From: Eledone cirrhosa
Lineage: Eukaryota
Reading direction: 5' to 3'
Length of the DNA stretch: 64,000 nt
Assembly (NCBI GenBank): GCA_964016885.1
Contig: OZ024740.1
Location: 53,692,001 to 53,756,000 of the forward strand
Position numbers and translations under genes: made by a program. Below the pieces are notes generated by a model. It did no database searches. It was not told the origin of the DNA and was given only the letters and a program-made list of their open reading frames with translations. Shown here piece by piece: positions 1,341 through 63,660 of this stretch (the first letter of the stretch is position 1; each line of letters opens with the position of its first letter).

Positions 1341-2575
1341 TAGTAATAATAATAATAAATTTGAAGACTAAAATCCAAAGAGGGCTCGATAAGAATAAAT
1401 ATATATCAAATATATAAGAACCGTAGAGCAAATATTTATTAAAATAACAGATTAAAGTTTAAGCAAAGAATCGCTGCTTTCACCCTTAACTAGATCTTCT
1501 GAAACTAACAAAGTCAATCTGTAAACGCAGAAGTGGATATTTCTAAAAAAGTTGCAACCGGAGGAAGACAGGAAGACGATACTTTGGTTTGTGGAAACGT
1601 TCCCTGGCAAAGAACGGGAAAAAACGAATATAATACGTCATTAATGGGAGCGGTGAAAAACAATTACACGCAAAGACAGTGGTAGCTAAGTATATGTTAT
1701 GTTTATACCATTACTTATTTGCATAGGTAAGTATATATTACCTGTATGTTTTGTGAAGGTACGTATACTTTCTCGTACGTATATTTGATTGTATATGTTA
1801 TGGCGTATAATTTTATATATTCTGGTACATATGGTTTGGTTATGTGTATCCGGGAGTTTTGCGTCTGAGTGAGTAAGCGGGTTCGTACTTATGTAGGGTG
1901 TGTGTATATGTGTACTTCATGTTTTGGTTGACGTACGTCTCCGAACATTTGTGTATTTACATGTAGGTATGGGTTTGCGCTTGTTATATACGTATTTATT
2001 TATTTATATACGTTTATTTAATTATTTATTTATTTGTATACACGCACACACACACACACATATTTATATGTGCGTGGTTTTGTATACCTATGGCAAGTGT
2101 TTTCGCGTATGCTTGTGAAAGTACGTATTTGCATGCGTGTATGTATTTATTTAATTTCTATTACCTCTGTATTGTATTTTATTTACTTTATTCTTAACTC
2201 TGAAGCGGAGATTCATTCGGTCTCCTAATTAGAATTTAGTCTACCACTTCTGCTATACCATTTACGTGGTTTTGTCTTTGCGTGCAATTGTTCTCCACGC
2301 TCCACAGATGACGTCTTATCATCGTTTTTTCCGTTCATTGCCAGAGAACGTCTCTATGAACCACCTAATAGAATATTAGTCTACGAACTCTTTTATAGAC
2401 GTATTATATTCGTTTTTTCCCGTTCTTTGCCAGGGAACGTTTCCACGAACCAAAGTATCGTCTTCCTGTCTTCCTCTGCGTTTACAGATTGACTTTGTTA
2501 GTTTCAGAAGATCCCGTTAGGGGTGAAAGCAGTGATTCTTTGCTTAAACTTTAATCTGTTATTTTAATAAATAAA
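1341..2575. mobile_element. Non-autonomous Penelope/retrozyme-like element (family P1) with inverted arms, bounded by (TA)n
   Basis: Part of the left arm 1341-1680 (about 1432-1640) is the reverse complement of 2398-2575, with a deletion in the right arm. Same family at 40983-41558 and 63401-63520. Hammerhead-like fold at 1456-1506 (-) and 2500-2550 (+). Confidence 0.7.
2500..2550 (+). ncRNA. Type-I hammerhead-like fold with CAGAAGA core variant
   Basis: AGTTT CAGAAGA TCCC GTTAG GGGT GAA AGCA GTGATTCTT TGCT T AAACT; helices I, II and III all pair. Confidence 0.55.
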
Positions 2576-2970
2576 TATATATATATATATAAATAAATAT
2601 ATGTATATATATATATATATATATATATATATATATATATATATATATATATATATATATATTATATATATATATATATATACATATATATATATAAGAA
2701 CTAGAAATTGATTAACATATATATAAACATGAATAATCACAGGAGATAATTTTTACAAGTGTGTAACCACACATAGCTAGGTAGGTAACTAAATAAAGTT
2801 GACCAGAACTTCAAAAATAGATACCTTATAATATGGGTGATATGGCACATGTCCATAATTTTGATCTAGATTAAATTCATTTAATTTACCTTAATTTTGG
2901 ATATAGATATATACATATATATATATATATATATATATATATATATATATATATATATATATATATATAT

Positions 2971-3252
2971 CTAAGGCGGGTAAAATTCCCGAGATCCATG
3001 GACGAGTTCTCTCCAGCGGTCTCTGTCCCTCATTATCGCTGCCATATCCTGCATCTCCAACAGACCAGTGTCTGTCCTTAAGGCATCAACATATGTTAAC
3101 CTTGGTCTTCCTCTTCTAAACTCAGAGCTGTATGGGAGCATCCCAAAAGTCAGCTCAAAAGTGACACAGAGAAGACTGAGGTTGGCTGGACATGCTCACC
3201 GACATCCAGAGTTGACATTGCACTCAGTGCTCCTTTGGGAGCCCCTACATGG
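2971..3252. mobile_element. RTE-clade LINE 3' end with 5' inversion, inserted in (TA)n
   Basis: + strand 3119-3252 encodes [43 protein letters not shown]; - strand 3117-2971 encodes the continuation [48 protein letters not shown]. Confidence 0.85.
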
Positions 3253-3584
3253 ATATATATATATATATATATATATATATATATATATATATATATATAT
3301 GTATATACATATATATATATATATATATATATATATATATATATATATATATATATATATATATATATATATATATATATATATATATATATATATATAT
3401 ATACATATATATATATTTATATATAAGATCCATTCCCAGATGGCCTTGAGATTTTCCTCAAGAAATTTCCTCTACGAAGCACAATCCCAGACAGGTAGAT
3501 CTTGTGGGAGGATACTAATCGCTTATGCATAACGCCACCGATGTGTGCCACGGGAATGGCAAAAGCAGAAGCTGCTTGGTTCCG

Positions 3585-59869: not shown

Positions 59870-62800
59870 TATTCAACTCTATAATACTAAAACGTTTCCC
59901 ACCTCTGTTCTAAACCACTCCATGTAACGAAAACAAGATAAAATTAACTGAAGCTTCTATCTACTTTAACCTTCGTTTTATGGTTGTATTCATTTCACTG
60001 AACTTGTGAATCTAAGGTTTTTAATATAAACGTGAATGTTTTAGACCACACTTTAAATATGACGCATTTTTATTAAAACCCTGAAAGTATTAAGTTTTAT
60101 CTATGAGAATGACTATAATACACTTTGAACCATTATCAGAATTCCAAAGAAGCTAAATGAGGAAATATAGAATCATTGTAGGATGAATTACTTGTGTTAG
60201 TAGGGTATATTAATATATAAAATAATCCTTTGAAGTGGATATTTTATCGAATCTACATAAATGAAACACTAAACCTATCCTTCTAAGTTTTGCATTCAGA
60301 TTAGTATATGTAAATAAATTGATTTAGTTAACCAGCTCCGCATTCCACATTTCTGTGGCACCTTTATTTAGAAATAATGCAGTTTTTAATACAGTACTTG
60401 GCAAATCTGAGAAAGGACGTAGTCTCTTATCAGTGAACTTAACTGATGTTTATTTCATCAATTGCGGAAGTGCCATTAATCCTTCTCTTGATTACTTGAA
60501 CGCAGAACGGAAAAGATATAACTGAATACAAGAAGCTATTCTGTCAGATGTTCTACCAATTCTGTCAGATGCTCTACCAATTCTGCCAATCCATCACCGT
60601 ATTTTCAGACATTAAACTAGACTAGAAAATAACGAAAGTTCAATGTTAAGACAATTTACACAAAACTATATTTTAGATTGAGCATTGTTCATAATCGTAA
60701 TAGCACTTATTCCTATATCCCAGTAAAGTGCTATATTTTACTGGAAGATGAGATGCGATGTTGATAACTATTCCATTATCAGCGTAAATGAAAAGAAAGT
60801 GTTTTCCAACATGAAAGAGATTGATAATTTCAAATAGTTGACGCATTTCATCCAGAATAATATAGTTTTGTTCTACAGGGCCGAATTGAAATTAAAGGAA
60901 TTCCTGTGAGAGAGTCTTAACAGGCGTTATACTCAGTAATAACCAATATCTTTGTTCAGAGACGCGACAATGATTATAATGATAATAAAAGAATAAACAT
61001 CTGGTTGCATTTCTGTTCGCGGGCATTTTTAATTCATAAAATTCGAAACAAATTGTTAAAACACGCAAACGTAAACACACACACACACACACACCCACAC
61101 ACACACACACACACACACACACACACACACACACACACACACACACACACACACAGACACAGACACAGACACACACACACACACACACACACACACACAC
61201 ACACTCTGTGGGTGTAAGTTACTAAATGTGGTTGTGAGTGTGTATCTGCAATAAATAAAATGTTTTTGAAAGACGTATTTGCGAGCAGCCTTACTAAAGT
61301 GCACAATGTACTCGTTCGTGCTAAATATAATAGTTTCGAGTGCAGACCTATATATATATAATATACTAAACAAGTTAATCCATGTTCTTTAAAACAAATT
61401 TCCGCGCACACACACACTCATACACGTGCATATATATTATACTATATTTCATAACTTAATGAGTAAATGGATAATCAAAATATAAGCATAGTTTTAAATA
61501 TTTTTTAATATAAAATTTCATTTTTCTCAAGGAGAAATGGACAGTGCCAATCATTTTCAAAACCTCCAAGAAGAAAGGCGGCCTTGCAAATACTTGCAAC
61601 AGAAATTTCTCACATACCCAAAGCATCTCATCCGACGGTCGAAGAATTCCTTCTATTCATAGCTAACAGCTGGTACTCTATTTTATTGACCCCGAAGCAT
61701 GATAAGCAAAGCTGACTTCGTTGGCATTTGAACGTAGAACGCATACAATTGAAATATATATTGGAAATAATTTCAATTACGCTTTCTTTGGGGGTGTCAG
61801 TAAATAAACCATACATAGAAATAAAATCTGTCTCATAAGGTGTGGAAATCTATCTAGTCAGAGGCAACTCTCATTTTAATGATAGAATGTTGTCTACATA
61901 ATGCGCAGAAATATTTGAAATTTGCTTGTATTTCTTCGATCACTAATGTGACAGTGCCTATATATTAGTTATGACAGAAACACCTGGAAATAAGGCAATG
62001 AAACCTTTGATAAGGAAAGAGCACTAAGGCTATACATTAAGGGAAATAAGGGTTTGGAAACCGCCCAATTTTGTTTATTTTCTTAAGTAAACACATATTA
62101 AAAAGGGGAAATGAAAAACTCGTATAATAAATGCTTGAACGTGATAAAAGAAACAGTATCAAAGTGGAAACGATTTATTGTGCGAGCATTAAAGAAACAC
62201 ATGGAAATAGATATAAAACAGACAATGAACGTAGATCTAATGTTATTCCTCTGAGAACCAAGGCAGAAAATGCTGCATTTTAAAGAGACAAACGATGGTG
62301 ATAAGACGGCAACTTCAGAAGTTTAATTATTAAAGATTTATATCTCACTCGAAGGGAGTCAAAGTTGAAAGGATTTAATATTCTCATGACCTACTTAAAT
62401 TATTGGAACCGTGCATATACACACACACACGTATACATATATATATATATATATATATATATATACACACACACACACACACACACACATATATATATAC
62501 ACACAGACACACACACACACACACACATATATATATATATATATATATATATATATATATATATGTGTCTGTGTATACGTGTGTGTTTGTGCATATATAT
62601 GACTTTTCAGATTATTCTTATTCGTATAGAATACGAAGCAGCGGACAAATCATCAGTTCCTCAAACCAATAGCTGAAACAATCACGACGGTTTTCAGAGA
62701 AAGGAGACACCCAGATGCCACAGCTAAGAAAATAATGTTTACTAAGATCGCGAGGCTGCTTGTCACACCCTGCAACTGCGTATTCACAGTTGATCTGGAA

Positions 62801-63400
62801 AGGCGGCTACAAATTCCATCATATATGAATCAGTCCACGCTGAAATACCACATCCGCTTGGTTTCTGAGGTGACAAGTTAGCTCATTCTACTGGAGTTAA
62901 CATTTTCTTTGGAGGAGAGGATGACAGACGCACAGAAAAGAGAGAGTGTGTATACCATGTGTTCATGGACGACTGCAGAATTATGAAGGTAGACATCTGG
63001 GATTTCGCAGCTCACGCCCTTAGCAAATCTTATTAACCTCTGAGTAAGTAGGAGGTGAACCATCGAACACAATTTGGAAGCAGCAGAGAGAATATCTAAA
63101 TGTTTCTAGTTCAAAAGAAAAGACAGGTGCGGTTAGTAGTATGTAAGATGCTTGGACACAAGCTGAAGCGTGATCAACCTCTACTGTGTCACCAGAACTG
63201 GGATGTACGTTGTAAGGCACGAAACACTAATCGATTCTAGGAAGAACACTTATGATGTATCCAAGGTTTCCCTGTACCTAGGATTTCTTTTGTTTCTCTC
63301 TCTCTATATATATAGAAATATAACATGATCGTACATTTTTGCTGGGTATCGCATATATGTATATATATATATATATATATATATATATATATATATATAT

Positions 63401-63660
63401 AGTAATAATAATAAATTTCAAGACTAAAATCCTCCGGTTGCAACGTTTTTTGAAATATTCACTTCTGCGTAAGGGTGAAAGCAGCGATTCTTTGCTTAAA
63501 CTTTAATTTGTTATTTTAATATATATATATATATATATAACGAAGGAAATGTGGTAAGGAACCAGGTGGACCATAACGGACCAAAGTACTCAATACTTAG
63601 GGTAGTAGAGTGGGTAATAGGAACCAGTAAGACCCTTGGGGTCTTACTGGTTTCTCTCTA
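63401..63660. mobile_element. Adjacent deleted family P1 copy (63401-63520) and family X copy (63537-63655)
   Basis: Identity to 41344-41470 and 3970-4056; terminal hairpin AACCAGTAAGACCC TTG GGGTCTTACTGGTT. Confidence 0.75.

Follow-up and report, generated by a model that had tools for sequence, protein, structure and literature searches.

Penelope-like element ends and tandem retrozymes carrying hammerhead motifs at (TA)n arrays of Eledone cirrhosa

Hammerheads of Penelope-like elements (PLEs) are mostly single motifs from truncated copies, and covariation of their core to U3-A8 has already been described (Cervera and de la Pena 2014, PMC4209133). Tails and inverted, 5'-truncated copies have also been published for PLEs, as has (TA)n insertion for Hydra (Craig et al. 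2021, PMC8557442). Metazoan non-LTR retrozymes are non-coding tandem monomers with one type-I hammerhead, present as monomers to multimers (Cervera and de la Pena 2020, PMC7229834), and their mobilisation by PLEs has been proposed (PMC7229834; Li, Clavereau and Pollet 2026, 10.64898/2026.07.22.740005). In vitro, the Poseidon PLE of Anolis cut and extended both strands of AT-rich DNA; two internal reverse transcriptase (RT) start sites gave the tail, uncut RNA was the main substrate and the hammerhead was not needed for insertion (Frangieh et al. 2024, PMC11167929). Literature searches on hammerhead ribozymes in octopus and on the newt satellite-2 promoter returned nothing relevant, and the main text of the Octopus vulgaris repeat paper (PMC13282606) has 0 occurrences of 'ribozyme'.

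We analysed a 64,000-nt stretch of the E. cirrhosa genome (contig OZ024740.1, positions 53,692,001 to 53,756,000), called the window below, and 390 kb sampled elsewhere in the genome. Family loci, given L numbers, were drawn from best-match lists, with a bias towards young and long copies. All parts found belong to described kinds of element. The islands between the (TA)n arrays are mostly 5'-truncated PLE tail ends, joined by four retrozyme families, which probably rely on the same enzymes.

Hammerhead motifs in the window and the genome

The features of the window are listed here, with the strand where one applies.

1343..2575, P1, two-armed insertion of a Hydra-type PLE 3' end; A at core position 4 of the hammerheads 1501 (-) and 2505 (+)
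3960..4143, family K, short two-armed insertion of a Hydra-type PLE 3' end; only the 3' half of the hammerhead kept
8303..8368 (+), decayed piece of another hammerhead family, with intact cores in L148, L250 and L252
9981..10621, non-coding retrozyme of ~575 nt, two-armed; core 10376 (+), 7-bp helix III
12056..12685 (-), retrozyme of ~525 nt, 1.2-mer with terminal redundancy (12053-12163 matches 12575-12685 at 98%); core 12183
13939..14112 (+), family J, Neptune/Nematis-type PLE 3' end of the U3-A8 core family, truncated within the hammerhead
14507..14640, family K pieces
15859..16170, family J two-armed insertion; U3-A8 hammerhead near 16053 (+)
16325..16606 (-), family 16523, Hydra-type PLE 3' end; core 16523
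16744..17076 (-), retrozyme of ~445 nt; core 17063
26613..26631 (-), family 37651 fragment; retains no more than the helix I strand and the first core half
27271..27902 (-), 5'-truncated Neptune/Nematis-type PLE; C-terminal half of GIY-YIG, 3' UTR, hammerhead core 27433
36443..37008, older two-armed copy of the ~445-nt retrozyme group; decayed cores 36526 (-) and 36764 (+)
37100..37581 (-), 466-nt retrozyme, about one monomer plus a short inverted piece; core 37359
37642..37820 (+), family 37651, very young Hydra-type PLE 3' end; core 37651
39440..39600 (+), hammerhead island, motif type as in family 16523; core 39491
39836..40067 (-), hammerhead island with one core mismatch; core 39961
40982..41556, P1 two-armed insertion; core 41407 (+)
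42455..42695 (+), family 42502, Neptune/Nematis-type PLE 3' end; core 42502
45459..45531, family K fragment
47695..47763, family K fragment
51591..51675 (+), family K 3' end
54053..54255, family K two-armed insertion
63402..63519, P1 miniature two-armed insertion
63540..63660, family K two-armed insertion
1312..63717, 86 merged (TA)n arrays, into which the elements insert; 7% of the window is perfect TA

At least three of the islands (39491, 39961 and 8303) have no assigned parent element.

By a strict descriptor the window held eight motifs for type-I hammerheads, predicted self-cleaving RNAs (10376+, 12183-, 16523-, 17063-, 37359-, 37651+, 39491+ and 42502+), with the core CUGANGA..GAAA..NUH and helices I-III. 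In 200 local dinucleotide shuffles of the window the count averaged 0.02-0.115 and never exceeded 1, and the 390-kb sample contained 32 strict motifs, or ~82 per Mb, against 0-1 in its shuffles. Motif density was well above the shuffled controls, the comparison proposed in the initial annotation. These counts refute the idea that the motifs are chance matches in AT-rich low-complexity DNA, as does their recurrence in defined families at 95-99% identity; in its favour, allowing one core mismatch produced 3-7 matches per 390 kb in shuffles, and most motifs fold no better than shuffles (minimum free energy z above -2 for 8 of 10), so that folding alone singles out few. At all five sites where the initial annotation had named a CTGANGA..GAAA..NUH core with pairable helices, both were found (cores 10376+, 12183-, 27433-, 37651+ and 42502+). 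At 27433 helix II of the window copy lacks 2 nt, for which reason this core was parsed by eye; in its relatives elsewhere the hammerhead is regular. The islands had also been called unrelated in sequence, which is too broad, as the 466- and ~445-nt retrozyme monomers are 62-64% alike.

Among the 150 of 335 matches listed by an Rfam scan of the window, one was a hammerhead (HH9 at 37306-37377, E 1.4e-5). The HH9 gathering score of 52 bits was missed by the best match in the window (36.5 bits) and in a genome search (35.8 bits, with scores for 58 of 177,211 candidates); minimal hammerhead motifs are poorly modelled by Rfam. The scan of the window was dominated by microsatellite matches to miRNA models.

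Extrapolation from the 390-kb sample gave an estimated ~250,000 hammerhead motifs genome-wide. The density is far above published counts (~9,000 in Xenopus tropicalis, PMC4209133), which were obtained with different descriptors. We suggest only tentatively that the E. cirrhosa genome, with 250,000-350,000 motifs, is among the densest known hammerhead loads.

Autonomous families and non-coding retrozymes

Eleven families were resolved, seven of them 5'-truncated 3' ends of autonomous PLEs and four of them non-coding tandem retrozymes. The PLE clade labels come from motifs, not a tree: four families are Hydra-type (P1, 16523, 37651 and K) and three Neptune/Nematis-type (J, 42502 and 27433). For all seven, other copies have the RT and endonuclease ORFs, either upstream or as part of a tandem. 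For P1, loci L009, L020 and L029 continue into an RT ORF, L031 has the endonuclease upstream and L236 reads hammerhead-ORF-hammerhead, as does L241 of family 16523, for which L255 holds a 706-aa ORF. Family 37651 is linked through L239, L240 and L254, K through L311 (747-aa ORF), 42502 through L346 (RT and GIY-YIG upstream) and 27433 through L061 and L243. Partial tandems (pLTRs) with a hammerhead were found in L236, L240, L241, L311 and L243, and the sampled loci of J and 42502 showed none.

Pfam recognised GIY-YIG above the cut-off in L346 (42502) and L334 (J) and just below it in L061 (27433); an RT ORF with a C-terminal GIY-YIG is that of an EN+ PLE. The window core that had been placed at 27394, downstream of a GIY-YIG remnant, indeed follows the C-terminal half of the endonuclease by ~270 nt (core 27433). 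Families J, 42502 and 27433, assigned to Neptune or Nematis by motifs only, have in common with EN+ PLEs of that type a Cys-rich linker before the C-terminal GIY-YIG (PMC8557442) and with PLE minimal hammerheads a short palindromic helix III (PMC4209133).

The Hydra-type ORFs carry DKT (L311, L255, L312 and L244) and CxCx5C (L311, L255, L236 and L119). A Pfam search recognised nothing in them and a profile search of PDB sequences with a Hydra-type ORF gave 0 matches; with a low-confidence structure model (pLDDT 46) the best 20 PDB rows were all reverse transcriptases. By motif and fold search these ORFs are predicted to be RTs with an endonuclease. Family 37651 was placed with them by protein identity of 38-47% to the P1 ORFs, and among the top matches listed 39 others are 99% identical to the window copy. 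Common to the four families and the published Hydra clade (PMC8557442) are a single ORF, C-terminal endonuclease, DKT, CxCx5C linker, pLTR hammerhead, partial tandems, inverted 5'-truncated copy, one-end tail and (TA)n insertion. The published clade has RWK where RWR or RWH was seen here and is <3 kb in length, against 3.3-4.0 kb from hammerhead to hammerhead here; published PLE tails are 30-40 nt, against ~70-100 nt in our elements. The families here differ further in their variant cores (A at position 4 in P1, U3-A8 in K) and in their tens of thousands of short ends.

P1, which had been counted as a hammerhead family, has cores at 1501-, 2505+ and 41407+, but these are not canonical. Position 4 is A in place of U in 18,366 exact copies genome-wide, against 72 with U (exact genome-wide counts were made for P1 only). 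The J and K cores depart at positions 3 and 8 (U3-A8; K was parsed by eye). A search of main texts for U4A returned nothing relevant, and an A4 variant may already have been published. A viroid hammerhead with a natural U4C change is less active in vitro and tolerated in vivo (cited in Perreault et al. 2011, PMC3088659). Both are natural changes at core position 4, but in P1, a predicted ribozyme, the base is A, not C, and is fixed in >18,000 genomic copies.

The four retrozyme families have monomers of 466, ~445, ~525 and ~575 nt with one hammerhead each. The 466-nt units are exact repeats in arrays of up to ~14 units, with a longest ORF of 60 aa (ORF length was checked for this family only). 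Tandem ~445-nt units occur in L184, L185/L247 and L189, ~525-nt units at a spacing of 528-530 in L114 and L213, and the ~575-nt retrozyme is known only as 1.1-1.3-mers. At 445-575 nt, three of four being >450 nt, and 33-40% G+C they compare with 150-450 nt and under 45-50% in published metazoan retrozymes. Linear and circular RNA forms would be expected of such retrozymes.

The initial annotation had proposed a diverse set of PLE-tied hammerhead retroelements at (TA)n, which stands, made up of at least seven non-autonomous families, which does not: seven of the 11 families are truncated autonomous PLE ends and only four are non-coding tandem units. Those four, and the small size (100-650 nt) and non-coding content of most window copies, are what would lead one to see all islands as independent non-autonomous hammerhead families. 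Since seven families run into RT/GIY-YIG ORFs in other copies, this is refuted for them and very improbable as a whole; in the 390-kb sample ORF-linked families also covered ~18 kb, against 3.9 kb for retrozymes. Short J or K two-armed units could nevertheless spread independently.

Insertion at (TA)n arrays

In PLE ends and retrozymes alike, two arms in head-to-head orientation run out into (TA)n, one stopping at a fixed long end and the other at a fixed short end; a long end was paired with a short end in 148 of 157 two-armed insertions from 10 families. Two arms were present in 24 of the 34 arrays of the 466 family, and all 24 ended at nt 300-303 and 228-234 after the predicted cleavage site. 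We met no description of two-armed arrays with such PLE-style ends in the retrozyme literature cited here (PMC7229834; 10.64898/2026.07.22.740005). Target duplications, where readable, were 11-13 nt; in a weak test 25 of 157 pairs had one, against a mean of 13.4 and a maximum of 23 in 500 shuffled pairings.

The expected enrichment of motifs within 200 bp of (TA)n was found on one side. Downstream, 27 of 32 strict motifs had (TA)n within 200 nt, against a background of 15.7% (p about 2e-17), and upstream there was no enrichment (8 of 32 against 15.9%, p 0.12). P1 was inserted in (TA)n at 26 of 30 loci, and with two-armed ends abutting (TA)n this bears out the insertion preference claimed earlier. 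The further suggestion that the elements seed or extend the microsatellites was right for slight extension, the array being split and ~11-13 nt duplicated; seeding was not borne out, as three array-free insertions had no added TA. The elements target and slightly extend (TA)n.

In principle a telomerase-like Penelope RT could create the arrays, adding TA by slippage at priming. At least one flank of 152 of the 157 two-armed insertions carries (TA)6, hammerhead-family ends account for at least 89 of the 626 array edges sampled, and by eye the RNA past each end opens with a short TA-like stretch. Most array edges, however, are not element ends, and L222, L230 and L231 of the 466 family lie at AT-rich sites without an array, where 11-13 nt are duplicated and TA was not added, so we consider creation of the arrays improbable. 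An all-against-all search for empty sites gave 1,298 candidates, was too noisy and was discarded.

Ordinary satellite growth by unequal crossing over, without a multimeric or circular RNA template, might also account for the tandem retrozyme arrays, and the patchwork of unit variants in L219 fits local duplication. Nor was there an A-to-G excess over T-to-C among rare variants, as A-to-I editing scars would leave, in eight families (p 0.07-1; low power). Against it, the arms share a haplotype including private variants across the strand inversion (L218 and L223), both outer array ends fall on two fixed sites, and arrays of 2-14 units are dispersed with unrelated flanks; we regard this origin as unlikely, though it keeps some weight. 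For L234, a mirror arrangement of the unit variants in the two arms proved inconsistent and was dropped. An RT stop at the predicted cleavage site was dropped too: of 43 inversion junctions, 1 lay no more than 5 nt from it, where 1.0 was expected.

Proposed mechanism and meaning

From what was directly observed, namely family membership, ORF links, downstream (TA)n, the long and short two-armed layout and short target duplications, we consider it very probable that the islands comprise at least seven PLE-family 3' ends and at least four tandem retrozyme families, with the hammerhead 25-300 nt before a fixed 3' end abutting (TA)n, likely written by a Penelope-type endonuclease and RT. The enzyme would nick both strands of the self-complementary (TA)n ~12 nt apart, and each nick would prime reverse transcription, at two fixed internal RNA sites. 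Synthesis would usually halt early, leaving just the end with the hammerhead, and the two cDNAs would be joined head to head. Poseidon belongs to a different clade and starts 111-118 nt into its ORF at sites reported as not homologous to the target, in contrast to the TA-like opening past the ends here. Retrozymes are probably copied by the same Penelope-type enzyme, from multimeric or circular RNA left uncut; cleavage by the hammerhead may yield unit-length RNA or circles and would be dispensable at the insertion step. Retrozyme homology to a particular PLE was not found in the part of the genome covered, so the partner is named here only as a Penelope-type enzyme.

Hammerhead families make up ~6% of the sample and 11% of the window (the library is incomplete, and a SINE fragment inflates the values slightly), and much of this DNA is probably filed wrongly, as SINE, MITE or simple repeat. 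P1 offers a natural experiment on the need for the ribozyme. The retrozymes bear the two-ended insertion marks of autonomous PLEs in the same genome, which is sequence evidence for a step that had been proposed and is unproven. Since the families are young, their start sites mapped, two ORFs (706 and 747 aa) close to intact and the (TA)n target simple, direct tests can be made of how PLEs retrotranspose and what the hammerhead contributes.

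Hammerhead motifs and variant cores

The window spans G000:C1:53692001-53756000 in a genome of 3.0 Gb. A strict type-I hammerhead descriptor matched it 8 times, against a mean of 0.02-0.115 and a maximum of 1 in 200 shuffles with the microsatellites held in place. The initial annotation had named five hammerhead sites (cores at 10376+, 12183-, 27433-, 37651+ and 42502+). These were borne out: four are among the 8 strict motifs, and the fifth, 27433-, was recognised on manual parsing, and most of its 29 relatives have a regular motif. The pattern was found to hold genome-wide, as the same descriptor gave 32 motifs versus 0-1 in 10 shuffles in a sample of 39 ten-kb stretches (27 contigs, 390 kb in total), chosen blind at round coordinates. 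This density, 82 strict motifs per Mb, corresponds to ~246,000 in the genome, with a Poisson range of 168,000-347,000 and a wider true range as the motifs cluster. With different descriptors, up to 120,000 retrozymes have been reported in axolotl (PMC7229834) and about 9,000 minimal motifs in Xenopus tropicalis (PMC4209133).

Variant cores came in addition to the strict count: 6 motifs of family J with U3-A8, a core shared with family K and previously described (PMC4209133), and 6 in which position 4 is A. Three more U3-A8 matches look like chance and were set aside. The A4 core is typical of family P1, where it was present in 30/30 best loci and in three older decayed relatives. An exact 30-mer carrying A4 has 18,366 copies genome-wide, against 72 for its U version and 109 for the C and G versions combined, which puts U4 copies at mutation level and points to an A4 source element. 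The strict core counts U4, and U4C is described as tolerated in a viroid (PMC3088659). No published A4 core was found in a literature search that covered main texts.

Coding and non-coding families

Queries for the genome search were ten islands plus a single upstream stretch; for each, the flanks of the best 19-29 other loci were read. Seven families were found to be ends of coding elements. P1 has the same last base, with (TA)n after it, in 26 of 30 loci; three loci continue into a reverse transcriptase (RT) ORF, another has the endonuclease upstream, and L236 has the layout hammerhead-ORF-hammerhead. The same ORF linkage was seen for families 16523 (L241, L255) and 37651 (L239, L240, L254), and K ends flank a 747-aa ORF in L311. 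ORFs among these four groups carry the DKT and CxCx5C motifs of the Hydra clade of Penelope-like elements (PLEs), for which canonical hammerheads and insertion at (TA)n are reported (PMC8557442). A Pfam search did not recognize the Hydra-type ORFs; a low-confidence structure model matched reverse transcriptases in the PDB. Two are candidates for biochemistry.

Stop-free Hydra-type ORFs, RT through endonuclease
L311:4474-6714, + strand, 747 aa
L255:3829-5946, - strand, 706 aa, family 16523

Upstream of families J, 42502 and 27433 lie a Cys-rich linker and a GIY-YIG domain, the Neptune/Nematis layout. In the window 11% of the sequence matches an exemplar library of the families, and in the sample 5.9%; coding families supply about four-fifths of it. 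Most families are truncated ends of autonomous PLEs. The proposal of at least seven non-autonomous families stands as regards a diverse set of hammerhead retroelements, four of them non-coding, but not for the seven that derive from coding PLEs.

In many J insertions (L277-L295) the inversion falls at one short site located ~30 nt upstream of the hammerhead; in K insertions it often lies inside helix II. The recurrent point marks either a hot spot of template switching or a short unit able to spread alone, in a set where the query favoured copies of that kind.

The non-coding 466-nt unit has no ORF >60 aa and recurs in near-identical copies, up to about 14 per array. A ~445-nt unit is related to it (62-64% alike), a ~525-nt unit is a further family, and a ~575-nt unit was seen as 1.1-1.3-mers. 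An octamer (Oct-1-type) site lies about 130 nt (466) and 100 nt (~445) before the cleavage site (window 37100-37581, 16744-17076; L080, L247); it is absent from the 310-, ~525- and ~575-nt units. Newt satellite 2 has an snRNA-type promoter, and by analogy an internal promoter of this type is possible in the 466 and ~445 units. A literature search on such promoters found nothing relevant.

Islands 39491, 39961 and 8303 fall outside the eleven resolved families. The foldbacks and TA-bounded islands listed below, some with half hammerheads (51128+, 50960 region), are probably ends of additional families. The L313 frame has a putative likeness to a proteasome regulatory subunit and is a possible processed gene.

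Other features
Window 1-90, 5226-5409, 11625-11848, 29296-29441, 34334-34537, 38468-38970, 43794-44009, 48131-48499, 59682-59868: abundant SINE-like repeat, about eleven copies, some of them in tandem or inverted pairs
Window 50564-50636, +: tRNA-Ser(CGA)-like gene or tRNA-derived repeat head
Window 41690-42000, +: decayed LINE piece, weak RT-tail match at 41796-41957
Window 2971-3250, +: decayed LINE piece, by eye from translation
Window 28000-28700, -: decayed LINE piece, by eye from translation
Window 9623-9806, 17074-17378, 50795-51056, 51089-51300, 2700-2900, 14700-15120, 39640-39812: foldbacks and TA-bounded islands with relatives elsewhere
L249:213-1957 (G000:C4 near 150,514,000): two-armed tandem retrozyme, 310-nt unit with its own hammerhead, absent from the window
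L313:8217-9224, +: intron-less 336-aa frame

Insertion signature, template and (TA)n arrays

In every family the 3' end falls at one of two fixed positions some 60-100 nt apart, and many islands flanked by (TA)n on either side consist of two arms joined in head-to-head orientation. Long and short ends were paired in 148 of 157 two-armed insertions from ten families (4 long-long, 5 short-short); a smaller tally of eight families gave 123/129. Of 34 arrays in the 466 family, 24 have two arms, and without exception these have their ends at nt 300-303 and 228-234 past the cleavage site. This layout matches the 'inverted 5'-truncated copy with a tail at one end' described for PLEs (PMC8557442), and is consistent with in vitro work in which RT started at two internal sites and both DNA strands were cut (PMC11167929). 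About ten insertions whose flanks are not pure TA (J, 16523, 466, ~575) have an 11-13 nt direct repeat that contains an internal interruption. A loose count of target duplications gave 25/157, versus a mean of 13.4 and a maximum of 23 in shuffled pairings, which is modest evidence for a short duplication.

Inner junctions showed no preference for the ribozyme site (1/43, 1.0 expected) and insertions run across intact hammerheads, which excludes a cut linear monomer as template. A test of substitutions gave no support for editing scars in the families studied. Units of one array hardly differ on either side of the inversion, and every unit shares variants private to that array (L218, L223); this would fit a circle or a homogeneous multimer. 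The mixed units of L219 and L234 are not compatible with one monomer circle.

The window contains 86 merged (TA)n arrays; perfect TA runs make up 7% of it and 5.2% of the sample. An array lay within 200 nt downstream of the cleavage site in 27/32 strict sample motifs (background 15.7%) and within 200 nt upstream in 8/32 (background 15.9%). With one core mismatch permitted, the downstream and upstream counts were 33/44 and 11/44 in the sample, and 8/12 and 5/12 in the window. The association is directional, on the downstream side. (TA)6 was present on a flank in 152/157 two-armed insertions, and ends of hammerhead families form at least 89 of the sample's 626 array edges, a count that leaves out K and 27433 ends. 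Three 466-family insertions at array-less AT-rich sites have the duplication and no TA gain. Elements use and split existing arrays, adding about six repeat units; the suggestion that they extend microsatellites holds on a small scale, but there is no sign that they seed them.

Every component belongs to already described kinds. Added here are the density of predicted hammerheads, an insertion signature common to retrozymes and PLEs, and a family-wide A4 core in P1.
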